A stretch of DNA of 64,000 nt from Sphaerodactylus townsendi (GCF_021028975.2 NC_059440.1:22506001-22570000), one strand, 5' to 3'. Counted from the first letter of the stretch, positions 20,601 through 63,497 are shown. Program-made: numbers and translations. The notes: generated by a model from the letters alone, not told the origin.

Positions 20601-21897
20601 ACACCGGCTTACCATCTCTACCATCATCCGGGTGAGTAGTGTATCCAGAGAGGGTGATGGACCCCCTGCTAAAGTGCACTTGGGTATGTTGCGCTTGTAC
20701 GTCTCAGCATCGAGAATATGTTAGCTGGCCTTTCAAATCCTGATCAAATCATAATGGGAGCTGTAATTACTTTGGGGTGGGGTGGAGGGAAGGCTCTATC
20801 CATGTTTGAATCAAGATTGAAAACAGAAGGTTGCATGGGGTCAGGCATTCAGCTCTCCTGGTTTAATCACCCTTGTCTTTTCACATCTAGAAATTGTATG
20901 TTCCTCTCTAGACCTTTGTTGATGATCCTGGAAAGGCTATGAAATCCCTGGAATCATATGCCAAGAAAAAAAGCTTACAACTGAGATATAATTGTTTGTT
21001 CAGAATACGCAATAAGCTTGGCTCTCTTTGGTCTGGGGGCTTTGTTGATGAGCCCAGAAAGGCTATAAAATCCTTGGAGTGCATATGCCAAGAGATAACT
21101 CTTATAACTGAAATGTTATTGTTGGTTCAGAATAGGCAAGAAGCTCGGCTCTCTTTGGTCTGGAGGCTTTTGATTCTAACTTCCTAGGGAACATACAAGC
21201 CAGGATATGGGATGTGAGGGAATACTGACCAAACGTCAAGGATGCAGTCTGCTAAAATAAGATGTCTGCACAAGCTCTGTGAATTGCTTAATGGCTTGGT
21301 GGAAGGCATTTTTAGATTACTTTGGAAGCATGCATCTTTGGACATTGGTCTCACTGATTTCAGTAGGATTTCCTTGAGGCAAGTGTGATGATGGTTCACC
21401 CATACATGACATAACTGGTACTGGGGCGGTCTAAACCATAGATGGCACTGGATTTAATGTCTGCATCCTTAGGAGTATTCCTTATTGAGCTGCTAAAATA
21501 GACGCTCAAGTAGCTCTTAATATGGTAAGACTAAGACTTTCTGGGGTACAACACTGAGGTGGAGGCTCAGAGTGATTGAAAGCTCTGCTGTGCTGAAAAG
21601 TTCCTTTCCCATAGATGTTTAGCTCCTCAAGGGCAAAGACTAAACAAGTACCGTGATCTACTTTCTATGTGCAGAGAATTCATACAGGGGAACAATCACA
21701 TGAGTCCCTACTTCCAATCTAAAATTTCTTCATTGGCTATTTGGGAGAACTAAATTGCATTCCTGAAGATGCTGCAGTGCTTGAGGGGAGGGATGCAAGA
21801 TAATTTCCAGAGGAAAATCAGTTCTGCCGCTGGCTTCAGGGGGAGGTGGGGTCACTCCCCGTATGGTTAATGACCTCTTTTTGTCTTTCTTTTTCAG

Positions 21898-27277: not shown

Positions 27278-28320
27278 ATCTAAAAAGATCTCTAACCTTC
27301 CCTCCCACTGTTAAAAACTTGATCCAATTTTTAAAAACCTTGCGCAGTTTCTTTTCGCACTCACATCTTTCCCTCCAAGCTCCCTGGGCTGTTTCGTTTT
27401 GCTTACATATTGCAATTTTTAAGTTCAAGTTAAATAGAACAGGATAAGACGGATCTCCAATATTAAACAGTAGGAAAAAATACAACAGCAGAAGAGCAAT
27501 CTCTCAGACAAACGTTTTATTACCAGCCCCACTAGAATACTGAAACAGCATTAAAAAGATGACTGGGAGAGAATCTTAAAATGAGACCCAGTTAAACAAA
27601 AGTGACTCTGTTTGACGCAACTGGCAAAAACTCTGCAGACTCGGTGTTTGGTAAAGCAGTTCCACAGCTGAGGCGCCACAACAGAGAAGGCTCTGCATCT
27701 GGGGCCAAACCCTTTATTTCTAAAGGTGGGCCGCAAAGGTTTGGACAGGGACTTGGCTGATCAGCGTCCAGCACCAACTGTATGCAACCACTCTTCCAAA
27801 TATCAAAGATTGATGAGCTTGTGTGAAAGAGAAGCAGGAAGAATTAAGCAGCTACTGTGGTGTTTGCGGCCAGATTGATGGGTTTGTCCAGAAGTGCTCC
27901 ATGTTTGAATCCTTGCTCTGTGACAAAGCGCCTGGTCAAAACTGCTCTCTCTCTCTCTCCCAAGCTAAACCTGTTTTTCAAGCTTCGCAGGAGAAGAAGT
28001 TAGGTAAGAAGTGCAAAGCACTTACATTAAACAGACTGGTGGCAGCTTGATTTGCATGTTTTGACCATTATCTAAAAAAGGGCACAGTTACTCAGCAATA
28101 CTGCCAAGCATTAGGGACCTGTGTGGCTTCGGTATTAATGATTAACATGCCAGACCTCTCTCGGCAGTCCTGATAAAGAAGTGCCTTCATGTCCAACACC
28201 TGATAATTGCTTACGTTATTTGAAGGCTGACATAAATCGCTGTGGAGCCGGCAGCTGCTACTGTGAAGCCAAGCTCGGCTGGAGTACAATCGCTTTGCTA
28301 CGGCTGCTCAGTTTGGCAGC

Positions 28321-29214
28321 ATGGAACCGGAAGCGATCTCTCCTGGAACCGCCAGTGGGGAAACAAGCGAGTGTGAATCTGCTGAAGAAAAAGTGGCAGG
28401 GACGGACAATTGCAGCGCCTCTGAAGACCATGATAAAAACACAGACCACGTAGGATGCGGGACTCCAGATTCCAAAGAAAAGAATGCGGCGTCTTATGTG
28501 AAACTGCAGTCTCTGCAAACCTTGGACCAACTACTTATGGGCAGGAAATACACAACGTTCCAGATGTCACCACTGTCCGTACCTGCTTCTTTGGGTTGTT
28601 CTGATAGTTCGGCCAATCAGGGAGACTTTGGACGCTCTTCCGACGGCTCAGCCGCAGACATGGACTGCCTTGTCTGCTTCAACCGCTACAGTTGCAGCCG
28701 GCCCCCCAAGGTTCTCGCCTGCCACCATGTCTTCTGCGCGGTCTGCCTGAAGCTGATGCTGCGGAATGAAGATAATGCCTGGAGAATTATTTGTCCCGTC
28801 TGCCGGAAAGTCACCACCGTCTTCGGAGGGCTTATTTGCGGCCTCCCCAATAAAGTGGGCATTGGGCACTTGGCCGATCCTGGCCCAAATGCAGAGATGC
28901 ATTTCTCTCCGGACGCTCTTAGTGGAACGCTGGTGATTCACAGCACTTTCTCTATCAGCCAAGGTGAAGAACACAGTAACAGGGTGGCTGCCAAGAGGCT
29001 GCTCTTTCTCATCTTGCTGTTGATGAGCGTCATGCTTTTCGTGCTCCCCTTCCTGTACGGTGGCCTGTTGACGTGGACCCTTTGCTTTGCTGTCATTCTG
29101 GGACTGATCGTGGCCGGGGTGCTTTGTTGCAATCCTAACTGGAGCTGCAGCCGTTCAAACATTTTACCCCCTTGCGGGCGAACGAGCATGAGCCACATCA
29201 CATCTGCTGCCTGA
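28321..29214 (+). CDS. RNF186: RING finger protein 186 (E3 ligase), single coding exon, 297 aa
   Basis: C3HC4 RING CLVCFNRYSCSRPPKVLACHHVFCAVCLKLMLRNEDNAWRIICPVCRK followed by VTTVFGGLIC, then two C-terminal hydrophobic helices. Neighbour of OTUD3. Confidence 0.92.
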   Translation: MEPEAISPGTASGETSECESAEEKVAGTDNCSASEDHDKNTDHVGCGTPDSKEKNAASYVKLQSLQTLDQLLMGRKYTTFQMSPLSVPASLGCSDSSANQGDFGRSSDGSAADMDCLVCFNRYSCSRPPKVLACHHVFCAVCLKLMLRNEDNAWRIICPVCRKVTTVFGGLICGLPNKVGIGHLADPGPNAEMHFSPDALSGTLVIHSTFSISQGEEHSNRVAAKRLLFLILLLMSVMLFVLPFLYGGLLTWTLCFAVILGLIVAGVLCCNPNWSCSRSNILPPCGRTSMSHITSAA

Positions 29215-36050: not shown

Positions 36051-39000
36051 GTAGGGCACAGGTGTCAAACTCGCGGCCCTCCAGATGTTATGGACTACAG
36101 TTCCCATGATGGGAGCTGTAGTCCATAACATCTGGAGGGCCGCGAGTTTGACATCTATGCTGTAGGGGCAAGAGATAAACACAGATGGTTGGCCATTGTC
36201 TTTCTCTGCATAAGAGCCCTGAACTTCCTTGTCTCCCATCCAGGGGCTGACCCTGCTTATGCGATCTGACAAGATGCGGGGTAGCCTGGACCATCCATTC
36301 CCTATGAAAATACTGCATTTGCTGTTGAAAATACAGCATTTGCTCTTTTGTGGGCTTCTGACTGTTCTCATATATACGGTCAGGCATCTAGACAATCCGG
36401 GTGCTTCCTTAAAACCACCCTTGGGGTTCAAGCTTGTCATATAGAGGGCACTTTAGCAATGTATGTTCTAGTGCAATGGTGGCGAACCTGTGGGCACTCT
36501 CTGTGGGCACGCACAGAGTGTCCCCCCACCCCCGCACAAATCTAGGCTGGCCTGGGCCAGTGGGCTCGATTATTAGCACTAAACCTAAGATCTAGTTTCG
36601 GGGAAGCAGTGTAGGGAACCCTGTTAAGCGCTGTTACACTCCACTGATTTTCATGTGAAGAACTAAAGCGCGATCCTTTACTTGGGAGTAAGCTCGGTTG
36701 CTGGCAATGGGGGGGCTTGTTTCTGAGTAAACCCTCCTAGGATCATGATTCACCCATTGGAAGAGTTGCACTGTTGCTTCAAAGCAAAGCCACCGACTAC
36801 CACCAAGCTTACTCCCGAGTACCGCATACCTCGGAGCCAACCATTTTTTCTAAACTAAAACCTCAGTATTCAGGTTAAATTGCCGCATTGGCACTTTGCA
36901 ATAAATAAGTGGGTTTTGAGTTGCAATTTGGGCACTCAGTCTCGAAAAGGTTCGCCATCGCTGTTCTAGAGAATCAGCTTCTTCCAGGGAGTAGTCACTG
37001 AGCCTCTGTTCATAGGGGATTTTCTTAAATCTACCCTCTAAAACAGCAGATGGCAGGGTGGCCTCTCTGACGCTTGTCTTTTTCTAAAATAGAATGTGCA
37101 AGGAATAAATGCATAAAGTGGTAGTGTCTATTGATGCCATGGTTGAAAGCAGATTTGGCACATTGCATTATGGAAGAAGGTGGTGGTAATCCTGATTGAA
37201 GGGAAACTTGTGTTTGTTTCCAGCAGGAGAGTTAATTGCAGGGAAGGGAAGGCTGTGAGTACAAAGTCTGTAGGGTTCAAGTGCTTAGTAAGTGGCCAGT
37301 CAGTACTGACTCGTCATAATGTTGTTTGCCTTTCATGCGAATGCCCCTTTTCTCCTGTTGTACGGAACAAGCTCACCTTCAGTTTATTTTCCTTCTAGCA
37401 ACTGTTTGTTTCGGGCTCTCGGGGACCAGCTTGAAGGACACTCCCGGAACCACCTCAAATACCGCCAGGAAACAGTGGACTACATGATAAAGCAACGGGA
37501 AGACTTTGAGCCTTTTGTGGAAGATGACGTTCCCTTTGAGAAGCACGGTGGGTGCACCACGAGGATTCTCCCTGGAGGGCAGATAATATTTGGAAGGTGG
37601 GAACTTAGGAAACCAGAGGCCCAGTGAGGTTTTTAATTGATGTCACTCGTTCCCTTCCCCTTAGTAACATCCAAAGCAGTTTACTTTGTTCTTTTGTCCC
37701 CATTTTATTCTCACAACAACCCTACAATGTAGATTAGGCCCAGAGTCACCCAGCAGCCTTCCATGGTGGAGTGAGGCTTTGAACAGAGGTCTCAAAAATT
37801 CTAGGCTGACACACTTAACCACAACACCATGCTTCTTGTTATTGGACATATCTGTAACTTGTACACAAATATAAGATAATCTCTTCTTTTTATTGATGGT
37901 GTATCTTGGAAGAAACCCTAATCCTGCATTTGAGTAAATACTGTAACGATTTTCCCTTTCTTTCTTCGCACTGTCCTCATGCTGGGGCTGTTGTTCTGTC
38001 TAGCTTCTGTTGTTTTGTTTGGGCAGAATCATTTCCACGTTTATCCCTCTCTTTTTACATTGTTTAATATGTTCCTTTTCTTCTGGCCTCTTCCAGTTTC
38101 CAATTTGGCACAGCCTGGCACTTTTGCGGGCAATGATGCTATTGTAGCCTTTGCAAGGAACAATCAAGTGAACGTTGTTATCCACCAACTGAATGCCCGT
38201 TTGTGGCAGGTAAGTCTCAAGCTGAGTAGCCCGGTAGCTTTTAATTCTTCAGAGAATCCCAATTGAAGTTGCTGGGTACATCCCCTTTCATCATGTGTCA
38301 TTCTGCCTTTCACAGATTCGAGGAACAGACAAAAGCAACGCCCAAGAGCTTCACATTGCCTACCGGTACGGAGAGCACTACGACAGTGTTCGTAAAATCA
38401 ATGATAACTCAGAGACTCCTGCCCGGTTGCAGACAGAGGTTGGTTCTGCTAAACTGGGTCCTTGGGAACTTTGCTGGAGCATTAGATGCTGGACACGTAG
38501 GGTTGGCTCCACTTTCTGATTGGTGGGAAATAGTATGAGGCACATGTAAAGAAGGGAATGGGGTTGCCCTTTTTAGCGGCAACCTCATGGTCAGCATAGT
38601 GTCTGGCTCCCCCTCAGGAGTCTTAACAGAGCTGTTGACTTGCTCTTGTGTGGTTCCAGATGCTATGCAAAAATGAATCAAATAAAAAAGAAAACCTCCA
38701 ACTCAAGAAGGCGGAGGAGGAATCTGAAGAGGAGATACAAGATGAAATCGAGGATGCGGTGCAGAAAGTCCGGAACGCAACTGGCTGTTTGGTGAGCATT
38801 TAGGATCTCTTTGGTTGGGAATTGTGTTCAGTGGGTGGAGGTCTCCTGTGTGGAATCAGTCCACCCCTTTTGGGTACTAATTTTACCAAACTATCTCAAC
38901 CCCCCAATGTGCAGATCTGGCCCCCCAATTTTTTCCCCAGTTAAAAATGGCTTTTGGAGGTTGGGTTTGTACCATGTAGTTGCAGAAAATGAGATGCTGT

Positions 39001-46912: not shown

Positions 46913-49900
46913 TTAGCAAGGAGGTGTGGCCCCGCGGCAGAGGAGGTTTGGGTAATAGACTTTTGTTATGCGGTAGGTCTTGGCAGCTCTTTGGAAACAG
47001 AGGGCCGCTTCTTTATCACATTCGCAGATCATCCTATGGCACATCGTTTTCCCGCCTGCAAAATGAAAAAAGCCAAGAATCGAGGTACATGGCGTGCTTT
47101 TATTTGTTTGATTTTTATTTCACTTTTTTTCTCCCGGAAGCAAAAGATGCATCTTTGATCCCTTCCCTCATTTCATCCTCAAAATAACTCTTCTTCTTAC
47201 CTTGCATGTCATACAAGGTATAGTGGGCCCCAGGGGTTGTTCATCTCATTCCCTCCCTTGGGACAGCCGGAAGAATTGGAATGAGAGACAAAGAGCGGTG
47301 GTCACAGGGAGAACATAGTGCGGTCAGCTCTGACCTGGAAAATGCTTGGAGATTTGGGGGGGGGGGGAATGCCTGGGAAGGTAGATTTGGGGAGGGATTT
47401 CAACTTGAACCTATGGCATACCAAACTGCCCCCCAAAGCTGCTATTTTTGCCGGGGAAAGTATCTCTGTAGTCTGGAGATCAGTTGTAATTCGGAGCGGA
47501 CTTCAGGTGCAACCTAAAGATTCACAACTGTAAGGGGAAGGCCCATTGATGGTATCTCGGCCAAGGACACCCTCCCAAAGCCTAAAACTGACAACGATCA
47601 AGAAGAAGAAGAGTTTGGATCTATACCCCACCTTTCTCTCCTGTCAGGAGACTCAAGGTGTCTTACAAGCTCCTTTCCCTTCCTCTCCTCACAGCAGACA
47701 CCTTGTGAGGTCGGTGGGGCTGAGAAAGCTCCGAAGAACTGTGACTGGCCCAAGGTCACCCAGCAGGAATGTAGGAGTGCGGAAGCACACCTGGTTCACC
47801 AGGTAAGCTTCTGCCTCTCAGGTAGAGGAGTGTGGGATCAAACCCGGTTCTCCAGATTAGAATCCACCTGCTCTTAACCACTATACCACGCTGGCATTTG
47901 GAATATATCAAGACATCTGAAATATACTACAGTTCCTCCACTCCTTACCGCAAGATAATGCCCCTTTTGAGAAAAAGTAGGAATACGTTTCCAGTTTGGG
48001 GTCACAGCCAAGGGATGACATCTTTCCATAGCAACAGTCATGAGCATGGCAACACCTGTCAAACAGTCATGAGCATGGCAATCAGCGTTCTGTATGCTTG
48101 TATTCCAGAAGCAGATACGGATGACAAAAAAAGATGGGGCGACATGAGTACCAGTTCCCAAGACGTCTTGGGAAACATTTGTTTTTTAAATGGTATTATT
48201 TCACTCATGTGCTGAAAAATCTGCACTGAGTGCCCATCTGTTTGGTGCAGGAAGACGAAGATTGATTGTGTGTTCCTGCATTGCAGGGGGTTGTACTTGA
48301 AGGCCCTTGCGGTCTCTTCCAACTCTATGGTTCTATGATTCCTACCCACTTACCAGTCAGTTTCATCCAGAGGTTGCTTGGAGCCTCCCAATCCACAGTA
48401 ACATCCATACCCATTGTAAAACAGAGACGGAAGCCTGCCCGTCACCCGCCGGACCATGTCAGCAAACTGGACCAGGTTGCCATTTGCAAATGGGAGAGCT
48501 GCAAGCAAAGCATAAAAAGAGCCTTGCTGGATCAGACCAGTGGTCCATCTGGTCCAGCATCCTGTTTTAGAGAGTAGTCAACCAGGTTCCCTGAAGGCCC
48601 TATAGAAGCCAAACCGTTCCTATGATTTATTTATTTATTTATTAGATTTTAAACCGCCCACCCTCGAATGGGCTCTGGGCGGTGTACAACAGGCCAAGAA
48701 CAACATTACACACAACAGGCCAGAGCAACATTTCACACAGTAAAAATGAAGTTAAAACAATTTACAAACTCTATAAAACGCAGCAGCATTAATACAGTAC
48801 AATAAAGTACAACAATACAAAGAGTGCAACGCCCGATCCCAAGGCCGGGAGGGGACAGCAGTGCTAAGTAGATGCTATGTTGGGCGTGCCAATGATGGAA
48901 TAGCACGCAACACAAGGGCATCCTGGAGGGGGAATCCGCAGCCAGCCTCACCAAAGGCCTGGTGGAACAAAACTGTTTTGCAGACCCTGAGGAATTCACC
49001 AAGATCCCGCAGGGCCTGCACATCTGATGGAAGGGTGTTCCACCAAACAGGGGCCAGGGCCGTAAAAGCCCTGGCCCGGGTAGAGGCCAGCTGCATCATG
49101 GAGGGGCCAGGGACCACCAGTAAATTGGCCTCTGCCGATTGCAGAGGCCTACCCGGGACATACGGGGGGAGACGGTCGCGAAGGTATGAGGGTCCCAAGC
49201 CACGAAGGGCTTGTTGTCTGCTAGCTGTTTTCTTCCTATGAATTTGGAGGGTTCCTGTGGTCACTGATGCCTATTCCGGGAACTCCAGAACTGGAGACAG
49301 ACACCTGTCGTATTTGATACGACAGTTCCCCTTGGTAAATGGTAAAAGTTCTGGATGCCCTATGAGGAGAGACTTAGGGAGCTGGGTATGTTTAGTTTGG
49401 TGAAGAGAAGGTTAAGAGGTGACATGATAGTCATGTTTAAATATTTGAAAGGACGTCACATTCATGAGGAAGCAAGCTTGTTTTCTGCTGCTCCAGAGAC
49501 TAGGACCAGGAGTAATAGGTTCAATGTGAAGCAAAAGAGATTCCACCTAAACATCAGGAAAAACATCCTGACAGTAAGGGCTGTTCAACAATGGAATGCA
49601 CTACCTCGGAGTGTGGTGGAGTCTCCTTCTTTGGAGGTTTTTAAAAAGAGACTGGATGGCCAACTGTCAGAGTGCTTTGATTGTGGGTCCCTGCATTGCA
49701 GGGGGTTGGACTTGATGGTCTTTGGGGTCTCTTCCAACTCTTTGATTCTATTATTCTTTCGCTGGATCATGCTCCTGAGTGCAATCTTAACAGGAGCCTC
49801 CTGCCCCTTGACATTTATGGAAAGAGCAGAGCAAACTGTGACATCTATTCAATGTGCACAATTGATATTTTATTTATTTATTAAGGACATCTTTAACTCG

Positions 49901-50168
49901 CTTTTCTCCATAAAATGCAAACCCAAAGCAGCCTGCAACGTTCACAACGCGCAAAATACAATCAAATTTCGCCGTTACGTAAAATAATCAAATGCATGTT
50001 CCCACTTCTGCTTTACTGGAGTCACAATGGCATGCCACGTAGAGCGCTATCTGTAACGAAAGGCGCGCCATACATGCACACACACAAACACACATATGTA
50101 AATCCCAACCCCTTTGGATTACACTTACCCCACAGGAGGAGCAAAGGGATTCTAAGCGAAGAATTCAT
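46913..50168 (-). CDS. PLA2G2E: Group IIE secreted phospholipase A2, 144 aa; exons 50168-50129, 48498-48354, 48055-47949, 47055-46913
   Basis: [144 protein letters not shown]. Exon sizes 40/145/107/143; Ca loop and His48/Asp49/Asp99 intact. First gene after OTUD3, tail-to-tail. Confidence 0.93.
47600..47895 (-). mobile_element. tRNA-derived SINE (Squam3-like) in a PLA2G2E intron
   Basis: Family match with (AAG)n tail. Confidence 0.8.
48625..49210 (-). mobile_element. L2-clade LINE 3' fragment
   Basis: Encodes [14 protein letters not shown]...[17 protein letters not shown]...KTVLFHQAF; (TAAA)n tail. Confidence 0.88.
49354..49752 (+). mobile_element. CR1 LINE 3' fragment
   Basis: Encodes [24 protein letters not shown]...[22 protein letters not shown]; CR1 tail. 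Confidence 0.92.
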
Positions 50169-50282
50169 TTACGTAGATACCAAATAAGCAGAATAGTAGA
50201 AAAGACTTCTTCTATGTAATAAGGCAGGAAAGTACAGGGAATCTAGAGAGCTATACGCTGTACTTGATATGCATAGAGGCTA

Positions 50283-50292
50283 CTTATATAAT
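50283..50292 (-). promoter_or_regulatory. Putative TATA box of PLA2G2E
   Basis: TATATAAG on the minus strand, ~115 nt upstream of the ATG. Confidence 0.45.
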
Positions 50293-51320
50293 TACACATG
50301 CTTCTGTTCCTCTTTGGGAATGGCGTTATGACAGGATGCGCAAATATTGATATTTCTCATCAGGATCTGCTTGATTAGCCAAGGTGTACTTAATACCAAC
50401 CCGCCCACAAAATTGTCGGACCATATATTGACCCAGGCTGCCCCTGGGAAAACTAAATTTCCCAGAGTTCTTGGGATGCTGCCATAGCTGCATTTGTCCT
50501 GGATGCCAGGGGAAACAGCTTCCGTTTTTGGAAGAATAGCAGCAGCCAAAAAATGGACTTGGAGGGAATTCAGAGAGCGGCAGCAATCAGATGAAAATTT
50601 AGAGCTCTCAGTCAAAATAGAGAATTTATTCCCAAGCTTTCTGCAGTACTGTTCATAAGCGCTATGCTCTGTTCCACATAAAGGTAATAGTAGATTGTAT
50701 ATTCCTCTGCCACAGAACAAAGCATGCCGAACCTTCTTTGTACTAGAATGCTCTGCCTGGGTCCTAGTACCTACCTAGCCCTGTTTCCCCCATCCAGTTG
50801 AAAGTAAAATACATTTTGGCATAAATGCTCTTGTATCAAAGTACTATGTTCCATAATGCACAAATAATGGTTTTGACAAAGGCAGCATGTAAAAATGATT
50901 GATAATTCTCATACGCATTCGAAACTTTTGTTTCCTTGAGCAGCTGATAGCTGATGATTTGTTGCTTAGAAGACAAGAGATGATGAATCTTGCCCAACCT
51001 AGGAGCTAACTGATGCTTCGTACCAGAATGTCTAGAAAGAGGTTTTTTTGAATGGACTCATCTGGAGGTTTCCAGTATCAGCACTGAGGAAGACAGCACA
51101 CCATGTGTCTCCTTGGGAGTGGCCAAGACCCTGCTGGTGTTTTCTGTGGCTTATGAACAGATGGTCCCTGAGAATCTAGACTGTTGGCCTCTTAACACTT
51201 TACAAAGCCCTCATGTTTGTTGAGAGAGAACATAAGGAGCTTAGAACCATTGCTCAGTGGAAGCGTTGTGTCTCCCAGCCTCAAATGTGTCCTTTTCTCC
51301 TCACAACTGGGTGTGCAGAC

Positions 51321-51570
51321 CAGAGGTGTATCTAGGGAAAATGTAGCCGGGTGTAAAATCTGAGTTTTCTGCCCACCTCCCCGTCTGGGCAGCCGCCCTC
51401 CTCCACCATGACCAAACAACGTTTTTTTGCACCAGGTCTTGAAGTCAGTGTATGGACCTGGGGGGAAGAAGGAGGGGTGTGGGACGTCCCCCGATTTTCG
51501 GCCCTCGTGTAAATGGTCACAGCCTGGGGAAATTTGACCCCATATGTTCCCCTGGGCAGTACGCCCCAGG
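51321..51570. mobile_element. Non-autonomous hAT-like element; related copy at ~6025-6228
   Basis: CAGAGG(T/C)GTAT(C/T)TAG(G/A)GAAAATGTAGCC start shared by both loci; TACGCCCCAG end; flanking GTGCAGAC duplicated. Confidence 0.72.
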
Positions 51571-51989
51571 TGCAGACTGGAGTAATGGGTGTGTTCCTTT
51601 GCAAGCTTGTTCTCTGCTGCTTAAAGCACCCAATGGAGCAGCTATTCGTGAAAACATGTTATTTCCAAGGTTGCATGTAAGTTTTGCAATGGCACCAGTA
51701 GCTCCTCTATTGGGCAGTAAGATATATGTGAAGTTATGGTTTAATGTCATTTTGCGCAGTAGTAGATCATCAAAATTATGCACATGAAATAGTTTTGATT
51801 CTGACGGTGTCTATCAAGGGCTGTTTGACAGCTTTGACTCTTAAAAAGTGTGTACCCCAAAAATTGTGTTGATCTTTAAGATGCTACTGGACACAAACAA
51901 GGCTGATTGTTTTTGACCTATATTCTTTGTCATAGAAACAAGGCTTTTGGTTTTTGACCTGTATTCTTCATGGCTCACAAAACATTTCT

Positions 51990-52290
51990 GTGTGGTGTAG
52001 TGGTTAAGAGCAGGTGTAGTGGATAAGAGCAGGTGCACTCTAATCTGGAGAACCAGGTTTGATTCCCCACTTTGCCACTTGAGCTATGGAGGCTTTTCTG
52101 GTGAATCGGATTAGTTTGTGCACTCCAACACATGCCAGCTGGGTGACCTTGGGCTAGTCACAGTTCTTCGGAGCTCGCAGGGTATTTGTTGTGTGTGTGG
52201 GATGTGTGTGAGGGAAAGTAGATTGTAAGCCCCTTTGAGTCTCCTTACAGAAGAGAAAGGGGGGGGTGTATAAATTCAATTTTTTCTTCT
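51990..52290 (+). mobile_element. tRNA-derived SINE, followed by a minus-strand CR1 fragment (~52291-52535)
   Basis: SINE family match; the CR1 piece is complementary to 49390-49645. Confidence 0.8.
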
Positions 52291-53199
52291 TTAAAAACCT
52301 CCAAAGAAGGAGACTCCACCGCACTCCGAAGTAGTGCATTCCACTGTCAAACAGCCCTCACTGTCTGGAAGTTTTTCCTGATGTTTAGGTGGAATCTCTT
52401 TTCCTCCACCTTGAACCCATTACTTCTGGTCTGGAGCCGCAGAAAACAAAGCTCGCTCCCTCACTAACATGACATCCCTTCAAATATCTAAACATGGCTA
52501 AAATGTCACCTCTTAACCTTCTCTTCACCAAACTTCTCCTCACCAGACTGTACAGTAAAGTAATTATAAACTAAACTTAATGATAGTACAACAAATTGAG
52601 ATTAAGATAACAATAGTTTAGAGAGAAAGTAAATGATTATTTATCCCAGTTTCATTTCTATGTTTCTCTTCTATATCTTATTTTTGTAGTGTAAGAAATA
52701 TTTCTCCAGAGAAACTTTATAAGTTTAGTTATATAGAATGATTTTTGGAATGCCGCCTCAACTCAGAGGAAGAAGAAATAGTTCACAGCTGACGAAGAGG
52801 GAAGTCACCTAATTTTGATTAGGTTTAAGAATGTTTTGTGTGTGTACGTTTTTTTTAGTACTCATGATGGATTCCAAATTTGTAATGATCCTAATTTTGA
52901 TTTTATTTGTTGAAATTTAATAAAAAAATGTATTTTTAAACAAATAACTCCTTGGGTTTTGGGATGGTCGTGCTCTCTAGCCGTCCTCCAAAACAGGGCT
53001 CCACCAAGATGATGATGATGATGATTTATTTGATTTAATAAACCGCCCACCCCTGAAGGGCTCTGGGCAGTGTACAAGAAAACAGTGGGTAGAACAACGA
53101 TACATAATAAGTAATTAAATAAAAATCCGTGATTTGATTGATAAGCCGATGACTCCAACCATGCATAGAAGACACCTTAACTGACAAATGCTGGAACCA

Positions 53200-56100
53200 T
53201 CACTTACATAGTGATGGTTCTTCCGAACAGTCCCTTCCTTTCAAAGCAGCAAAGTCTGGGTTGAATAAATCATGGTACATCTGCAGGCAAAACACATAAT
53301 ATCTGTCGCACCTACAAGCTCGTCTTCTACACCATGAGAACAGAAGGAAAGAAAGACTACTAAAAAGATAATGACTTCAGTGCTCCCTTTTAGGATTGTT
53401 GTTTGTTTGATATTTTCATGCTTCAGTGTTTTCCTTAGGCAGTATCTTTTCTAAGGTCGTTTGTAGTAAACCCTTTGCAGTAAATCCTTGTAACCGTAGC
53501 TCTGTTAAAGGAGGTTAAGTCAGGAACCAACCAAACTACAGTTCCCAGGATTCATCATAGCAAGCACGTTTTGAGGCCATGAACTCCATAAGCTTGTGCT
53601 TTGGCATGTATCGTCTTCTATCCTAGTTCATCTCCTGATAGAGGATGTAGCATTTTGAGTGCATCAGGGCTGGCAACAGGCTGTACCCATGTCTGTTCTC
53701 ATCCTGGGCTGTTTGTACCAAGGACACCGGAGTCTTTTCCAAAACCTGTTCTAAGCATGAATGGCATGAAGCCAGAGAGGTGTTGCCCCATAGCACACAC
53801 CTGGGTCCTGGTTGGGGTTATTACAGTTGATTTCCAGGTGACCCAGAACAGTTCCCCTGGAGAAAATTATATTCCAGATATTAGTTAACGAAAAAGTTTG
53901 CCAGGTTGTGGGGATGGCTTATTAAATTATAACAAACGGCCCGTCACAAATAAAATTATTTCCTATAAAGGAAGAAGGACAATGGCCCGGATACTTACAT
54001 TCCATAACAGATGGGAATACCCTCCAGCTATTTCAGAGTCTTTTAGTTCACTAATATATTTCTTTTACTTGATAACCTTTTACTTTGGTATTTATGCTCT
54101 TTTGGTATGGGTCGGTTTGTACTTGGCTGTTTTTCCTTCTTATCTTTGAAGTACACTCTTTTAATATAGAACTCTTTGTGTTTGAGTCTTGACCTNNNNN
54201 NNNNNNNNNNNNNNNNNNNNNNNNNNNNNNNNNNNNNNNNNNNNNNNNNNNNNNNNNNNNNNNNNNNNNNNNNNNNNNNNNNNNNNNNNNNNNNNNNNNN
54301 NNNNNNNNNNNNNNNNNNNNNNNNNNNNNNNNNNNNNCAGCAGAACAACAACAAGCACAGTAAAAACAAATAGAATAATCCCAGTTAAAAATAATACAAA
54401 ACCTTAAAACTATAGCAGCAGTAACCTTCAATAAATAATTAATAGCAGAGACGTCTGGCATCACACCCCAGTAATCAAACCCTGGGAGGTGGCTGGCAGA
54501 TGCCCAAATACACAGCCAGTGCATTATAGTCTTTTAATGTAGAACTCCTTGTGTTTACTCCTGTCTTTTTAATCTTTGAAAATTGATGCCAGTCTCTGTT
54601 TCGGTGAACATGATGTGACAAAACTTTTAAATATTTTGAAACGGAAGAAGGTGTACCAGCTCAGACTTTGAAGGGTCAGGGTTCGCTTCATGAATTGGCC
54701 CTATGAGACAGTGGAAAAGGGTCCACCATCCCAGAGAAGATCTACCAAGTAGACCTCAGCTCCGAGCAGAGGCAAAGATTTCCCCTTCTGCAGCAAATAC
54801 CCAAGCGCTCTTTCTGGGTGGGAGGGATAAACTCAGTATGTTGCTTTTATGTTAGGTACAACCTAACATTAAATATCTATATATCTAATTTTGACCATGA
54901 CCCAAAAGCACAGATTAAAAAATCTTCACAGTGGGTTTCCCCCCCTACAAACCTGGCATAGTCCTCAAGTTTTCTGAAAAAACTGAAAAGACCAAAAAAA
55001 TAAATTGTGAGGGAGAGTTAATTTCCTCCCAACCCAAAAATTAATGAGGAAAAGATCTCATGATGTTCTACCGCAAGATCTCAGCCGCCACTTTAAAGAG
55101 AGCTAGTGTGATGTACTGTCTAAGAATGCTGGGTGCTTGGGGTGACCCAAGTTCAAATTCCCACTTGTGCCCATGGAAGCTTGTTGGGTGACATTGCCAT
55201 TCATAAAATTTAACATCTTTCTATGTCATTATGAGACCAGGATGGCACATCACTCACCACATTCAATCTCTTTGCCATCATAGGTGTAACTGTAGCTGGT
55301 CTTTGTGGCATCACACTGTTTGGTCTTTAAATAATCATAGCAGCAGTTAAGGATCTGACAACATCTACATGAGAAAGAATTTTTTAAAAACGAAAGTCAG
55401 TTCTGAATCTGTTATAATGACAAATTTTCCTCTGATCTATCAGCATACTATTTTCAAAGGGTGCTTTCACAGTATACTAATATACATGCCCTGTAGGCAG
55501 ACTCTGTGGTATAGAGTTAGCATGGTGTAGCGGTTAAGAGTGGTCAACCTCTTGAGTGACTTTGGACTAGTTGCAGTACTCTCAGAACTCTCTCAGGTCC
55601 ACCTACCTCACAAGCAGTGGTGGGATTCAGCAGGTTCGCACCACTTTGGCAGAACTGGTTGTTAAAATGGTGCTTGTAAACAACCAGTGGTTAAATTATT
55701 TGAATCTCACCACTGCTCACAAGGTGTCTGTTGTGGGATGAGGAAAGGAAACCTACAGTAATTTAATAGCTGCTCGCCCCCTTCACAAGTGAGAATTTTC
55801 TGCACTTTTACTGGAGGTTGATTCCACCTACAGTGGACTGCTGATGTACGATAATGTAAGATGGCTGAGCCGAGGCAAAGTTCTTGAGCGCTTTGTGGAG
55901 TGCTTTGAAGAAATTAAGATTTTTTTTGAGGATAAGGATCTGGGAAACTTTCCTCAGCTCAATGATGATAAGTGGGTCAACACCCTGATGTTTTTTACAG
56001 ATCTCTCTGTTCATATTAATGAACTGAACTTAAAGTTACATGGTTTTGGCAAAAGTATTGACATTATGTTTGGATACATAAAAGCTTTTGTAAGTAAATT

Positions 56101-58920
56101 TAAAATTTTCAAGCCAGATGTAGACACTAAAACTTATAAGTATTTTCCTTGAGTAACAAACTATTTTGAGAAGGCCAGTGCAGCTATACAAAATGAAATG
56201 GAACCCTTGCATATAAAGTACCAGCATGTTTTAGGCTCGTTACTTGACCAGTTCAGTGATAAATCTAATCAATTTCGAAGCCTAGAACAGACCATGAAAA
56301 TAATGAATATCCTGATGTAGTTTGGAATTAAATGGTTTCCAATGGATGCAAATTGATGATTTGGAGATGCAACTTGCAGAATTTCAAGACAGCATCTGGG
56401 CTCAGGTGTTTGTCGGCTTGAGGTCAAAGCTTGAGAATCTGGAAAGGTGCTGCTTGGAGAATCGCCACTATGAACAGGAAATTTGGAGTGCCTGGAACCA
56501 ATTACCAGACACTTTTAGCACCATGAAAAATATAGTAATGGCTTTACTCACAATTTTTCCCTCTACGTACTTTTGTGAGACCTTATTCTCAGTGTTAAAT
56601 AATATCAAAACCAACAAAAGAAACAGATTGACAGATGAAGTTAGTAGCGCTTGAAGGCTTACAAAAAATACCAATTGAAGATTTAGCCAATGAAATTCCA
56701 GCAAAACTAAAAAAGTCACTAATAGGCAGATTAAAGGATTCCCCCTCCCTCCTCAACTAATCCACACAAGTTAAATAATATCAAGACCAACAAACGAAAC
56801 CGACTGACAAATGAACCAAGACAAATGAACCAAGGAGCATGTAAGTTAAATAATTAGTTTTGGTATTTGCTAAATACAGTTATATGTTTACAATTAAGCA
56901 TTTTTTGTTATTTAAAACATATAAATATCATGAAATTATTATTTTTTTCTCAAAGTGACACACCACCCGAGTTGTGCTTTCGGTTTTGGCTTAATTTTGG
57001 TACACACCAAGCAAGCTCAAAAGGTTGCCCATCACTGCCCTAAGGGAAGAATTAGGGTTAGGGTTAAGGGAGGGAAGGGAACCAGCATCTGGTTTTTTCC
57101 CACATATCCTATGGGAAGAATTGGGGTTATGGTTAAGGGAGGGAAGGGAACCAGCATCTCATTTCCCCCCCCCCCTTACCCTAAGGGAAGAATTGGGGTT
57201 CAGGTTAAAGGAGGACGGGACTCAGCATCTCGTTTTTCCCCACATATCCTGTATTGGATTAATTGGGGTTAGAGGTTAAGGAGGGATGGAGCCCAGACAT
57301 CCGTTTTTTCCCCCACATACCCGGGATCGGAAGAATTAGGGTTAGAGGTTAACGGAGGAGAGAAGGCACAGCATCTCGTTTCTTCTTTCCGCCACATGTA
57401 CCCTATGCGGGAAGAATTAAGGGTTAGGGCTAAGGGGAGGGAAAGGGGCCCAGGGATCTCAAGTTTTTTCCCCATTGATACCAGGGTGGCCAGAGTCCCC
57501 CCAACGACAATGATGGCCTTTTACCCCTTTCCCCCAAGTTATAACGCCATAATAATGCCCTTTATAATGCTGTAATAACGCCATAATAACACTGTGATAA
57601 CGCCATAATAACGCTGTAGTAATGTGGGCAAAGGCCGTTATAACGCGGCTGCTGACCCCACCTGGCTGCCTCCCTCCCACACCAGCTGAGGGCTGCTTCT
57701 GCAGCAATTATCAGCTCCCTTTCTATCCAGGTTTGTTGTTCACTAGCATCTATGGTGATTCCGCCTTTTACCCCTTTCCCCCATGTTACATCGCCGTTAC
57801 AACGCCGTTACTATGGCATTGTACCGACGTTATAACGGCGTGGGAAAAAGGGGTAAAAGGCCGTCACCATCGTTGGGTGGACTCTGGCTGCCCTGATAGA
57901 CGGTGTGTGTGTGTGTGTGTGATGGTGCTAGGGAGGCAGCCGGGTGGGGTCAGCAGCTGCGTTATAATGGCCATTGCCCACATTATTGCAGCGTTATTAC
58001 AGTGTTATTATGGCGGCGCATACTGGCATTATAAACGTGTGGGAAGTGCTACCAAGGCGATCATCGTCAAGCTGGGGACTCTGGCTGCCCTGATAGATGG
58101 GGGAGGGGCTGCCAGTGCTACTGGAGCAGCCCTCAGCTGGGGTGGGAGGGAGGCAGCCAGGTGGGGTCAGCAGCCGCGTTATAACTGCCATTGCCGAACG
58201 CGTTACAGCGCTACAGAAGCTATTAACAGCACCGTTACAACCCCGCTACAATCCAATGGCGCTGTAATGGTGTTGTAACGATGAGGGAAAGGGAGTAAAA
58301 GGCCAATCGCCGTCAGTAAGGCGGACTCTATGGCATGCTCTTGCGTTCTGTTCGACGTGGGCATGCTTCCAGAACAAAAAACTTTGCTAGCATGCTTGCT
58401 TTCGGGGATGTTTCTTTATATTTACCACTTCAGCAAAACCTCTACTAGGTCTTATTTTCAGGGGATGTCTTATTTTGGGAGAAACGGGGTAGTAGGAACA
58501 ATTAGTACAGTGGGGCAGGGATTGCACAATGGGGGGGAAAACACAAAACAATATTGCCAAACATTTCTTTTTAAGGCAACAAGACATTCAGTGTGGTAAA
58601 TGCGTTATTCAGTGTAGTAAAGGCCTCTTTACACATTACTGAGTACACAGTAGGGTGGTGGCTGCAGAGCTCCTGGAATTACAACTGATCTCCCAATTAG
58701 AGAGATCAGTTTCCACAGAGAAAATGGCGGTTTGTAGGGAAAACATTATACTTTGCTGAGGCCCTTCCCTGCCCAAACATTGCCCCCCATAGGCTCCATC
58801 TCCCCCAATCTCCAGGAATCTTTCAGCCTGGTTGGCAACCCTGGTACATAGGTTGGTTCTAGTCTGACATAAGGTTGCCGACTCCAGAATGGGAAATTCC
58901 TGAGACTGCTGATTGTTATG

Positions 58921-58981
<61 letters not shown>

Positions 58982-59909
58982 AACAAATAAATAAAATATA
59001 CTCATCAACATGATCCTTGGGATAACCGTGACCAAGGCTATAATCTCCACAGTAGCAACCGTATGATTTTAAAAGACTGTCATACATCTGAGTCACGTCG
59101 GCAAGCATCCGGTCACGGTCTCTTTTCTTCCCATGGGCACCATAACCACCTAGAAAACAGTAGCGACAACCAATTAAATCCTGTTTGTGGAGAGTAGTTC
59201 AGTTTGTTTTTGTTATTGGCAATGAAGAGCAAAGATGTCAAGGGTCACATCAGCAGTCAGTGCCTGCTCTTGATTGCCAACTGATGGCTTTTATGTCACT
59301 GGTTTGTAAACAAGTCAGGAGTCAAGACACAGCTGCCTCCTGGTAATGGATTAGTCCTGGAAGAAGGGGAGCTGGAACATGAAGAACAGCACATGTAATG
59401 CACATGTAATAGCACCCGCTAGTCTGCTTTCTGGGCCCACTTGCTTCGTGAGGTGAAATCTGACTTGTGATTTTTGGCAACCTATGAATTAATGACCTCT
59501 GAAACATCCTATAGTTAATAGCCTTGTTCAGGTCTGGGGACGTGACGGGGTGTTTTCCTTTATAGACTCAATTCATCTCATGTTGGGTCTCCTGATTCCT
59601 GGCTGCCTTCAACCTTTTCCAGCATTATATTATTTTCCAGTGATCTGCTATATCAATATTTCTCGTACCATTTTTTTTAAAAAGTGGCCAGCAGTGAGGA
59701 GGGGACATGGCAGGTGGGAGGAAAAATATGAGGGAAAGCCATCCTGAGAAAGCTCAAAGCCTGTTGAGATTGCCCCTGTAATGAGGAATGAGCCCATTAT
59801 TTCGTAGTGATCCCACTCAATTGTGTAAAAGTCACTCCATGAAAAACCTCGGAAGGATATTCCACTTACCAGAGGTGACCAGCGCAGCAATCATAAGGAG
59901 ATGGTTCAT
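53200..59909 (-). CDS. Divergent group II sPLA2 paralogue, predicted catalytically inactive (H48L, D49N); possibly a pseudogene. Exons 59909-59870, 59149-59002, 55364-55258, and last exon ~53350-53200 (acceptor uncertain)
   Basis: MNHLLMIAALVTS|GGYGAHGKKRDRDRMLADVTQMYDSLLKSYGCYCGDYSLGHGYPKDHVDE|CCQILNCCYDYLKTKQCDATKTSYSYTYDGKEIEC|..SWCRRRACRCDRYYVFCLQMYHDLFNPDFAALKGRDCSEEPSLCK*. Exon sizes 40/148/107 and 14 Cys; the final junction is phase-discordant. Confidence 0.75.
54196..54337. other. Assembly gap (142 N)
   Basis: Run of N bases. Confidence 1.
55615..55715. mobile_element. Short hAT MITE nested in a SINE (~55520-55750)
   Basis: TIRs CAGTGGTGGGATTCA / TGAATCTCACCACTG; perfect TSD CTCACAAG. 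Confidence 0.85.
55790..57037 (+). mobile_element. 3' half of a decayed autonomous hAT-Charlie (GTF2IRD2/SPIN-like) transposon
   Basis: Encodes VRWLSRGKVLERF...LMFFTDLSVHINELNLKL and the dimerisation domain LLTIFPSTYFCETLFSVLNNIKTNKRNRLTDE, with stops and frameshifts; right TIR AAGGTTGCCCATCACTG ends at 57037. Confidence 0.9.
57044..57475. repeat. Six diverged ~70-bp tandem units with telomere-like TTAGGG/TTGGGG motifs
   Basis: Units of type GGGAAGAATTAGGGTTAGGGTTAAGGGAGGGAAGGGAACCAGCATCT...TTTTCCC start at ~57044, 57113, 57185, 57255, 57329 and 57409. Confidence 0.88.
57478..58330. repeat. CpG-rich complex inverted and direct repeat block (probable internal region of a DNA transposon)
   Basis: 57640-57700 is the reverse complement of 58125-58185; repeated TAACGCC/GCGTTA motifs. 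Confidence 0.7.
58923..58977. repeat. (AC)n microsatellite
   Basis: Seen directly, ~25 nt into the intron after the second coding exon of the divergent PLA2. Confidence 0.98.
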
Positions 59910-60321
59910 CGTCAGACACCACCTTAACAGACAGCTCAGGATTCTCCAGTGATCCCCACACTGAGGACTGAGGACCGAGAAGTTCAGATCTTCCACAGTC
60001 TGATTTGGAAATGCTCTGTCATTGATCGAGAGGGACGTGAAGTCCAAACTGCCAGAGGAGTACTCATATATAGGATCATGGAAAGAAAGGTTGTTAAAAG
60101 GCTGTGGGCGCCCAGGTACAACCTGTGATCACCAGGAGATGGTCACTGATATGGAATACGCCCTTGGACTGGACGCGTGACAAGTTGGCCCTGACTTCAA
60201 TGCACATCACTGTTATCTTCATTCTTTGCTCTTCTGTTAGAAATAGCAGATCTAATGGGAGGTTATGGATCACAGTTAGTCTTCGAAGGGTAAATTGTAC
60301 AAAGGCACAGTTTGGATCATG

Positions 60322-60610
60322 GTCAGCGTGGTGTAGTGGTTAAGAGCAGGTGGACTTTAATCTGGAGAACCAGGTTTGATTCCCCCACTCCTCCACCTAA
60401 GTGGCAGAGACTTATCTGGTGAGCAAGATGTGTCTCCGCATTCCTAGATTCCTGCTAGGTGACCTTGGGCCAGTCACAGTTCTTCGGAACTCTCTCAACC
60501 CCACCTGCCTCACCAGGTGTCTGTTGTGGGGAGAGGAAGGAGTTTGTAGGCCACCTTCGGTTTCCTTACAGGACAGAAAGGTGGGGTATAAGTCCAAACT
60601 CTTCTTCTTC
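60322..60610 (+). mobile_element. tRNA-derived SINE (Squam3-like)
   Basis: Family match with (CTT)n tail. Confidence 0.82.
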
Positions 60611-60907
60611 ATATGGGAAGAGGAAGGGTTTAGATTGGAATAACCCTGATTGGGCTGAAACAGAGGAATCGGCACGCTAATTGGCTGGAGGGGCTGAAGT
60701 CGAGAATACTTACAGACAGTCCGCTGCAAAGCTTGAGTTCCAACACGAAGTTCACCAAAAAGTACCTCCCTCGAGCAGGGATCGAGAAGATCCGCTCAGG
60801 CGGGTCGAAGGAGAGTCAGACTTGTGTCGAAATCTGCAGCTGTGCGGACTACCCGGGCCAAACACAAGTCGAGCCCTGCTGGTGATGTACTGTGTGGAAT
60901 CACTCAA

Positions 60908-61155
60908 TATGGGTTTAAATCACAAGCAGAAAGCTGCTGCTGGATATTACAATTTTTTTGCAGCATGGTGCTCAGTAGTAGAAACAGCTGCCGGCGGGGG
61001 TGTGTGTGTGTGTGTGTGATGAGCTCCCCATCACTGGCAGTTTTCAAGCAGTGGCTTGACAAACACTTGTCAGGTATGTTCTAGGCTGAGCCTACACTGA
61101 GCTAGAGCTTGAACTAAATGGCCAGTCTGGCCCCTTCCTGCTCTATGATTGTATG
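60908..61155 (+). mobile_element. Old CR1 3' fragment
   Basis: Similar to 6975-7213. Confidence 0.7.
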
Positions 61156-61279
61156 GTTCTTTTTCTGCCATTGTATCCAGCCAAGCAGGCGATACCCCAG
61201 TAGCATCTCCACAAGACGCTTGTGGGACCACAATCAAGTTCTACCACCAATGGGCCAGTCGGCTTTATTGGGTACTCAC

Positions 61280-61335
61280 TGCAGGCCAGAACATGATCAC
61301 TCCCCAAAGGATCTTCATATCTCTCCCCTAAGGAC
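61280..61335 (-). pseudogene. Orphan PLA2G2-type signal-peptide exon (39 coding nt, one short of the usual 40)
   Basis: Acceptor cttccag| then ATGAAGATCCTTTGGGGAGTGATCATGTTCTGGCCTGCA|gtgagt (MKILWGVIMF...). No matching downstream exon found before the next gene. Confidence 0.55.
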
Positions 61336-63231
61336 CTGGAAGATGGATGATGTAAAGGAACTGCAATGCCAAGACTGGAAGATGGTCAATGTAAAATCCT
61401 AAAAGAGGTGCAACTGAAGATACCAGTTCTATGTGCCTGCCTGCCTATCTAGAGTTGACTCTGCACCTCAGTTATTATTTGTTTATTATTATATCCCACC
61501 CTCACACTATAAAGCATGGCTCAAAGCAGCCAGCAACAATTAAAACACCACAAATACAATAAGAACAATTTTAACACACTATTTTATAAATACAGTAAAA
61601 TACAATTTAACACTCCAGCCCATCTTAGGTTATAAATTGTTTATTGAAAACCAAACACACCTTCTGAAAACCATACAGGTGATAGTGATGAGTAGTTCAT
61701 TCCTTCCCTACATTTCTTGTTTTATGAAAACAGCTCTTTATTTGGCTTACTTCTATTTTTCCTTTACAAAGCAAGCAGCTGTTAATGTATGAGAGAGATT
61801 TTAGGCAGAAAAACAGAAAACAATCCTGCCTTTATCTCAAAACCTCCTAGGCTGCATTAGGTAAAACTCTTTGTTTGCATTCCTTTTGGTCTATGGATAC
61901 ATGTCTTGAAATACCTGCTGCCTTGAAGCTGGAGATGCCAAAGAAGACTTAGAATTTCTTACACAAAAGCAATTGAAGAATGGACTCTCGGCATAATCTG
62001 AGAAAAATATCTCCGACACATTTCTTTCTTTTTTTTTTTTGGAGGAGCTGTTTCCTAGGGAGTGTGATCTCCTGAATTGAGGCACATGGTCTGAACCCGC
62101 ACGGCTCTTTTAGTTTTCCTGCACAAAAGTTTGGTACCAAAAAACCCTTAGCATCATGTCACATACTTCACCTTGTTCCAAACCCAATGACCTGCTGTTT
62201 CGGGCCAGCTCCCAATAGATTCTTGTCCTAACTAAGCTCACTTAGCAGAAGAATATCCGGACAAACGCGAAGTCATGATATAAGGAGTCATGGAACCAAG
62301 GCTGGTATTGGTACCGCATACTGGTATCAGAGCAGCTTGCCAACTCCAGGCAGGGAATGGGAGAAGCCAGGAGATGAGAGGTAAAGGTAAACATTTTTAT
62401 TCAAACTGGCAGAGAGGCAGTCAGCAAGGCGAGGAGCTCGGTGGGTATTCCTCTTGGATGTGCAAATGTTATCTTTTGATGTTTTTGTTTCTAACTTCTC
62501 TCTGCGTGGGTGGAGGTGTAATTAAAGAATAGAGTGTGCCTGCTTGGAGCTTTCTGATTAGAGAACTCATTAAAGAAACCACACAGCCTTAATGAATTAA
62601 TGTACAGTAGATTGAGAAAATGAAAACTAGCCTTATATATGGAATATGCATATTGAGTAAACCTAAAACTAATTTTCATCATTTTCTGATTAGAGGCTGC
62701 AGTATTTCTGATAGGTGACCCCCAGATGGCTGTTAAAATGTATGCCTCCCCTTGACAGTGAGATGGTGCATTGGATAGACAGGACACTAGACATTAAGTT
62801 TATTAATCCAGTTGATTAACTAATAGATTTTTAGCAATTTCAAATCACATTTCAGTTGTTCACATGTAGAGAGCAGGGTGTTCTATGGAGTTTTCTCCAG
62901 AATCCAATCAAGGGTTGAGATGACATTTTGTCCGGTTTATTGTGTGTGTTTCCTCCCTAAACTGAGACTCATTTTTCTCCATCATTTCTTTATTCAGTGG
63001 CATCTCAAGGATTACACAAATGCGCTCCAAAGGTATATCTCAGTTGCTTTTATTTCAGAATGTAAATCAAAAGAGAGTCAGTTGGCTTTAAGAAGCAAAC
63101 TCCTTCTGTTTGTTCAGGTAACTCAATTAATTTGACATTTAATGTTTTAAAGGAAGTGGATGGTTTTGTCCTCATATCCTTCCCATTCCAAGAGTCTTCC
63201 TTTTGGAGGCGGTTTCCACAAACAGGACTGA

Positions 63232-63374
63232 CTAGCACCCAGGGGTGGAACCTCTGCAGTCAATATTCCAATGAAAGCGAAAGTCTTTTCTGTAGCTCCC
63301 CAAGTGTTTTTTCAAGCACAGCACAAGATCTCTGTCACATTCACAGATCTGCTGTTGACATGATGTTCCATGGC
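63232..63374 (-). CDS. Last coding exon of a further group II sPLA2 (PLA2G2D-like); the rest of the gene lies beyond the window
   Basis: ttttttctcag|GC CAT GGA ACA TCA TGT... gives xHGTSCQQQICECDRDLVLCLKKHLGSYRKDFRFHWNIDCRGSTPGC*. 143 nt, phase 1, same size as the PLA2G2E last exon; AATAAA on the minus strand at 63049-63054. Confidence 0.9.
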
Positions 63375-63497
63375 CTGAGAAAAAAACAAAAACTTTTTTG
63401 TGACTGAGGAGAAGACACTGAAATCTTCATTCTGTAAGGCTTTGTGACTAGCCATCTCTTAAGCCCTCAAGACCCTTTTCACTCCCAGGGGTTGCAG

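Follow-up and report, generated by a model that had tools for sequence, protein, structure and literature searches.

Leu48-Asn49 in place of the catalytic pair defines an apparently undescribed group II phospholipase A2 lineage of squamates, with a probably broken copy in Sphaerodactylus townsendi

Gene structure and active site

The window, as we call the whole stretch of DNA analyzed, comprises 64,000 nucleotides (nt) of the gecko Sphaerodactylus townsendi (GCF_021028975.2 NC_059440.1:22506001-22570000) and contains on its minus strand a four-exon phospholipase A2 (PLA2) gene, labeled gene X here. Exon 1 (59870..59909) encodes the first half of the signal peptide, MNHLLMIAALVTS, and is followed by the donor GTAAGT after CTG. 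Exon 2 (59002..59149) is in frame, at 148 nt compared with 145 nt for its counterpart in the neighboring PLA2G2E gene, and encodes the end of the signal, a charged N-terminal helix and a calcium loop with a two-residue insertion; its donor, GTATAT after TGA, is poor. Exon 3 (55258..55364), which is in frame and equal in length to PLA2G2E exon 3 (107 nt), encodes CCQILNCCY and Tyr52, while an exon 4 remnant (53200..53338) carries Cys91, 96, 98, Asp99, Cys105, 126 and 133 and the stop codon (53202-53200). Compared with the orthologue from Heteronotia binoei described below, the residues are identical at 10 of 13, 27 of 50, 26 of 35 and 22 of 45 positions in exons 1 to 4, respectively. Gene X thereby shows the features of the Pla2g2 family, namely four exons, a signal spread over exons 1 and 2, and three exons for the mature chain.

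The original prediction, made from this DNA, was of a catalytically dead secreted PLA2 with an intact disulfide scaffold. The replacement of His48-Asp49 by Leu48-Asn49 was found as described, the codons CTT-AAC (55346..55351, read on the minus strand from 55351 to 55346) giving CCQILNCCY, and the same two residues occur in both full-length orthologues. Comparison with PLA2G2E also bore out the two-residue insertion in the calcium loop and the mature start KKRDRDRML instead of NLVQFADMV. As for the scaffold, the signal exon, the frames of exons 1 to 3, Tyr52, Asp99 and 14 cysteine codons (2+6+6) are present, but the claim of preserved exon sizes fails at exon 4, which has no usable in-frame acceptor. 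Each of the three mature exon peptides matched Pfam PF00068 in order (E 0.014, 0.0014 and 0.012), and since two full-length orthologues also exist, the PLA2 identity of gene X is not a chance resemblance. Likewise, the active-site change is not an assembly slip, because CCQILNCCY is also found in two other genomes. Searching proteins with exon 2 alone returned one candidate, none at E 0.01 and no full-length relative, and exon 3, in a HMMER scan of 50% representatives, matched a single, unrelated repeat protein.

Orthologues and conservation

A profile was built from Heteronotia g2G (Pla2g2G) and three gene X exons, and a word-based search with it yielded 46 proteins among 94 candidates. Two of these 46 contain an identical CCQILNCCY: XP_060115051.1 of Heteronotia binoei (151 residues), named 'acidic phospholipase A2 2-like' in the database, and XP_063001503.1 of Elgaria multicarinata webbii (152 residues), named 'basic phospholipase A2 Ts-G6D49-like'. 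These two squamate orthologues are open frames that keep all 14 cysteines, with the spacing 1,16,0,4,0,8,17,8,4,1,6,19,6/7. Both proteins share the calcium-loop insertion and the charged N-terminus, have eight residues instead of five between Cys84 and Cys91, and carry a predicted N-glycan sequon at mature position 16. Across 54 fetched proteins, 52 active-site motifs read HD and three read LN, all of the latter in the gene X clade.

Between Heteronotia and Elgaria the mature chain of gene X is as well conserved as that of g2G (83/131 and 76/121 identical residues, 63% in each case). Ile47, Leu48 and Asn49 are present in all three clade members and in none of the 28 other rows of the alignment. 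Over 123 sites, the window copy has 22 unique changes and the Heteronotia protein 4 (p 0.0005), and g2E stays 85-86% identical among geckos. Judged by these sequences, the lineage of the window's gene X is evolving much faster than that of Heteronotia.

Phylogeny and age

In a tree of 31 rows, the window copy and the proteins of Heteronotia and Elgaria form a clade with support 100/100 on a stem of ~2 changes per site, and the G clade (97/94) and the E clade (100/99) both leave out gene X. When its parent clade was tested with 21 rows, the grouping of X with G received a support of 0, and the P values of the approximately unbiased (AU) test were 0.42 for X with D, 0.20 for X with E and 0.46 for X with turtle D2. 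Gene X is 29-30% identical to g2G and 27-34% identical to its neighbors. Heteronotia and Elgaria also possess a g2G with H48/D49, located on contigs of the same length as those with their gene X, and therefore gene X is not g2G. Its assignment as an orthologue of the lizard gene g2G0 was considered and ruled out, as both species keep the separate H48/D49 gene and the tree sets X apart. Gene X is apparently a separate, so far unnamed pseudoenzyme lineage of the OTUD3-Pla2g2 cluster, as far as sequence comparison can tell.

The split between geckos and anguids lies near the base of the squamates, roughly 190-200 million years ago. Since Leu48-Asn49 is shared by geckos and an anguid, the dead site dates from near the squamate base, and since gene X has been kept as well as g2G from the split onward, its frame has been under selection since then. 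This modifies the original prediction of an independent pseudoenzyme in one lizard: the protein is indeed distinct from the viper Lys49/Asn49 forms, with the fold apparently kept, but the dead site is ancient, shared with an anguid, and belongs to a clade apart from g2G.

Predicted structure and loss of catalysis

An AlphaFold2 model computed from the Heteronotia protein and 22 aligned rows has a mean predicted local distance difference test score (pLDDT) of 68.9 and a predicted template modeling score (pTM) of 0.68, and shows three long helices and a beta-wing. Its best match among solved structures is human group IIA PLA2 (E 3.9e-8, root-mean-square deviation 2.1). The Atlas model agrees with it, and the PLA2 fold is predicted to be kept.

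The His48-Asp99 dyad is absent, with Leu48 in all three clade members and Asp99 kept, and the calcium site (Asp49 and Y28-G30-G32) is altered by Asn49, the two-residue insertion and a change at the Gly32 position. Leu2 and Phe5 are replaced by charged residues. Substitution of His48 lowers the activity of human group IIA PLA2 below 0.5% (PMC7583969, partial text). Because the changes affect His48 and Asp49 as well as the loop geometry and Leu2/Phe5, catalysis is very unlikely, and on the sequences at hand the gene X protein would very probably hydrolyze no phospholipid. The replaced helix is likely a working surface rather than debris, because it is itself invariant, and the membrane face has probably been lost, because the N-terminal helix is acidic. 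The full-length orthologues have isoelectric points (pI) of 4.67 and 4.75 and net charges of -10 and -7, while the window copy has a pI of 6.9. A ligand or structural role was proposed beside an antimicrobial one in the original prediction; the last is less probable, given the strongly acidic character (pI 4.7) of the conserved form.

The exon 4 acceptor of the window copy

Between 53460 and 53280 there are 14 AG sites, of which three are in frame. In two of these a stop follows within 11 codons; the third (53318) is preceded by only 4 of 15 pyrimidines and would drop Cys91, whereas the pyrimidine-rich AG sites before exon 4 shift the frame. With no usable in-frame acceptor, 6 of the 14 cysteines are therefore out of reach of ordinary splicing in this copy. 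The pyrimidine tract of intron 3 (53336..53361, minus strand) directly abuts the exon 4 remnant, the acceptor and first codons being missing. Up to 53337 the tail of the intron agrees with a close relative's reads. The spliced form of this relative nearest to the window, represented by 3 reads, has 16 exon bases that are absent from the window's exon 4 and occur nowhere else in the window. Compared with these spliced reads, ~20 bases including the acceptor are gone, and short direct repeats flank the loss. A mini-exon as the source of the missing bases was rejected, as the best match in the window has 3 mismatches with 2.0 such matches expected by chance; the mini-exon candidate at 54973-54953 was discarded as well, since it leaves the frame wrong and shows no RNA depth. 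In the public model A0ACB8EE04, D and E are fused with part of X, exon 4 of X being left out, and no separate record of the window's copy turned up in the protein searches. On the evidence of the assembled sequence, this copy is probably a recent pseudogene that is no longer functional.

Two further observations concern the same intron. Five RNA reads of the relative, from both runs, connect a stretch resembling 3' untranslated sequence backward to the tail of intron 3 (53139-53361), which suggests a local tandem duplication around exon 4. At 54196-54530, a 142-base N gap lies within a repeat insertion that is absent from the contigs of the relative.

Reads and expression in a close relative

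Four of 14 listed runs were compared over 52850-55450; two RNA runs and a contig set come from a close relative, and the fourth is a contig set from a different relative. RNA depth in run X12 was 251 on exon 3, 98-144 on exon 4 and 306 on the 3' untranslated part, while intron depth was at most 3.3 in 19 of 21 bins, the two remaining bins, which are repeats, reaching 11-13. Altogether, 218 reads extend to the exon 3 acceptor (55364) and from there into the end of a homologous exon 2, and exon 3 is joined to two forms of exon 4, by 44 and 3 reads, both of which by hand translation have eight residues between Cys84 and Cys91, like Heteronotia. The gene X family is expressed at ~150 reads per kilobase per million (RPKM) in X12 versus ~4 in X13. 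In this relative the family is transcribed, spliced and abundant in one of the two runs.

One contig set contains three types of exon 3 sequence, and more than one locus is therefore likely. The major expressed type differs from exon 3 of the window by one listed base (Gln>Arg) and has a strongly different exon 4 in which every visible cysteine is kept; the visible changes in cysteine codons are silent in 3 of 3 cases (P 0.001-0.014 if neutral, calculated post hoc). Within this genus, the copies have multiplied and acquired basic residues, both at the N-terminus and ahead of Cys96.

Proposed role and alternative explanations

Taken together, our results make it probable that gene X represents a squamate branch of group II PLA2 with Leu48-Asn49 that likely acts as a non-enzymatic, acidic, disulfide-stabilized secreted binding protein, presumably in a secretion restricted to certain tissues, the window copy without an acceptor being a probable recent pseudogene. 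A Pla2g2 duplicate lost His48 and Asp49 before geckos and anguids separated; its signal, Tyr52, Asp99 and 14 cysteines stayed, and it was conserved as strongly as the catalytic g2G. The PLA2 fold is predicted to be kept, with neither phospholipid hydrolysis nor catalytic calcium binding expected, and with the acidic N-terminal helix the membrane-docking face would be gone. Together with the clade-specific residues, the invariant Gln-Ile-Leu-Asn helix may form a binding site for a protein partner or lipid, presumably in a gland secretion or another extracellular fluid. In the gecko lineage of the window, evolution is faster; in the close relative the gene is spliced, occurs as several diverging types and is strongly expressed in one sample of the two, and duplication within the genus together with the shift to neutral charge may reflect relaxed or redirected selection.

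Several points weigh against this explanation. The binding role is one that we infer by exclusion, and relaxed selection in this genus is possible. The two full-length orthologues stem from a word-based search that does not show absence in other squamates, the exon 4 lesion is known from the assembly, and the expression data come from the close relative. That the expressed copies keep Leu48-Asn49 we infer from the fact that no difference at 55346-55351 is among those listed (40 of 175 rows). Moreover, a hand count of the major type against the window gave ~19 replacement and 6 silent changes in 87 loose-end bases, which is near neutral, and such segments are chosen for divergence, which biases this ratio; positive selection in the genus is thus not shown, because the count is near neutral and the segments are biased.

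A wider reading, which we put forward tentatively, combines a pseudoenzyme clade that arose at the squamate base and a binding role fixed from geckos to anguimorphs with venom-like birth and death in dwarf geckos, probably as a reproductive or skin-gland signal. As part of the same tentative combination, duplication, fast exon change, charge shift, high tissue-specific expression and the loss of copies and of g2G would constitute a birth-and-death phase in a non-venomous animal.

Among the alternatives, it is conceivable, although doubtful, that the window copy is intact in the animal itself and that an assembly error or a rare allele accounts for the missing acceptor. The 142-base assembly gap in the same intron, the several similar copies in close relatives, which might confuse assembly, and the open exons 1 to 3 are in line with this. 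However, the intron tail matches the relative's reads to 53337, a short direct repeat flanks the loss, as in natural small deletions, the exon 2 donor is weak too, and A0ACB8EE04 skips exon 4, with no separate protein of this copy found. At the opposite extreme, the broken window copy, Leu48-Asn49 and the long branch could mean that the whole clade is a plain decaying pseudogene, but this is largely refuted and highly improbable in view of two open frames of 151-152 residues that are 63% identical between gecko and anguid and keep all 14 cysteines, of spliced transcripts at ~150 RPKM, and of visible cysteine-codon changes that are silent in 3 of 3 cases.

The remaining alternatives concern function. 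Gene X might encode an acidic regulatory subunit that pairs with catalytic g2D, g2E or g2G and shields or steers its partner, as does the acidic chain of vipoxin, which carries Gln48 and provides partial shielding of the active chain (PMC13414281, partial text). Gene X is acidic and D and E are basic (pI 8.94 and 8.53), and this assembly, in which X is also accelerated and broken, has no g2G in the interval from D exon 4 to E. Yet the vipoxin chain keeps its hydrophobic channel (same partial source), where X has charged residues at Leu2/Phe5, and X is merely 27-34% identical to its neighbors, so that we regard such pairing as unlikely. Its acidic, secreted PLA2 fold with a predicted glycan would also suit an otoconin-like matrix protein for calcium carbonate in otoconia, endolymphatic sacs or eggshell, otoconin-22 being a PLA2 homologue and the main scaffold of amphibian otoconia (PMC3038909, partial text) and an otoconin-22-like gene being, of all genes outside the cluster, the one most closely related to Pla2g2 (bioRxiv 583344). 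We consider this rather improbable, since gene X is inside the cluster and not at the locus of the single-copy otoconin-22-like gene, and since the neutral (pI 6.9), fast-evolving and broken window copy would be unexpected for an essential inner-ear scaffold. Membrane-active PLA2 homologues are cationic, and the conserved form of gene X has net charges of -10 and -7 and falls outside the G clade; a non-catalytic action on microbial membranes, like that of the Lys49/Asn49 viper homologues, is accordingly quite improbable, even though the copies in this genus have multiplied and become more basic at these two places (N-terminus, ahead of Cys96), and the non-catalytic g2Gk arose from the same cluster (bioRxiv 583344).

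Relation to known systems

Secreted PLA2 proteins without catalysis are already known, and it is the conserved Leu48-Asn49 clade of the Pla2g2 family that apparently has not been described before. With squamate Pla2g2G (g2G0 in lizards; Ga, Gb, Gc and Gk in vipers) it shares the cluster, the central position between g2E and g2D, the group II cysteines and a Trp before Cys91, but g2G0 keeps H48/D49, coexists with X in Heteronotia and Elgaria and forms a separate clade. The viper Lys49/Asn49/Arg49 homologues (g2Gk) resemble it as a non-catalytic group II fold from the same locus, with Asn49 in PDB 4h0s; these keep His48, are basic venom toxins and derive from g2G in pit vipers (bioRxiv 583344), whereas gene X has also lost His48, is acidic and far older, lies outside G, and does not belong with that group. 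The acidic component of vipoxin is an acidic group II pseudoenzyme chain with His48 replaced, in its case by Gln48, and differs in its retained hydrophobic channel and as a recent paralogue of its partner (PMC13414281, partial text). PLA2G12B is a secreted PLA2 in which Leu replaces the catalytic His (PMC9837156, partial text), but it belongs to group XII, with another gene and locus and an independent origin. Otoconin-22 and otoconin-90 (OC90) are secreted PLA2-fold proteins with a structural role; they are set apart by their position outside the OTUD3 cluster, and OC90 has two domains.

A survey of the family reports E, F, D and G for squamates in its main text, with viper g2Gk as the sole non-catalytic form, and ascribes 'unique or transitional forms' to stem anguimorphs (bioRxiv 583344). 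No prior description of the gene X clade was found in the literature searched, which held few subscription papers and did not extend to the supplementary sequences of the survey, where the gene may be listed. The Pla2g2 cluster is a model case for the origin of venom and immune genes; a dead, conserved clade beside g2G would add a gene to its history, and loss of catalysis with kept function would have arisen at this locus much earlier and outside venom. Database names that present gene X proteins as active or toxin-like PLA2 would be corrected, and gene X offers a small, expressible protein for asking what the PLA2 fold binds without catalysis.

Neighboring genes and other features

Gene X lies between exon 4 of g2D and g2E, with the OTU gene beyond E, as expected for a member of the cluster. 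On the minus strand, PLA2G2E (46913..50168) has an intact H48/D49 site and exons matching S. townsendi XP_048374388.1, and the last exon of PLA2G2D (63232..63375) agrees with XP_048374386.1 of the same species at 47 of 47 residues. On the plus strand, an OTU-domain exon (37310..37624; PF02338, E 3e-6) belongs to the flanking gene, which we read as OTUD3 from synteny, as OTUD3 adjoins group IIE PLA2 (PMC4280545, partial text). In squamates, g2G, from which viper venom PLA2 arose, is retained between g2E and g2D (bioRxiv 583344), and in Heteronotia an intact g2G directly follows D. In this assembly, no g2G exon or debris was detected between PLA2G2D exon 4 and PLA2G2E (50168-63375), and g2G may have been lost or moved in this gecko. 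Public models fuse adjoining Pla2g2 genes (D+G in Heteronotia; D+X+E in Sphaerodactylus), and members of the family are hidden from protein searches because of this.

A small local duplication is seen in PLA2G2E, where the last part of intron 2 (48080-48054, minus strand) matches the beginning of exon 3 (CHAHDC). In gene X, intron 2 harbors tandem repeats that include telomere-like units, together with a long imperfect inverted repeat (57038-57473 and 57579-58195), and an open frame (55793-56149, plus strand) without a Pfam match, which we take to resemble a hAT/SPIN-type transposase fragment. Upstream of the OTU gene, a Y-box-protein-like gene (13426-20721), presumably YBX1, and a single-exon RING gene (28267-29211), presumably RNF186, lie on the plus strand.

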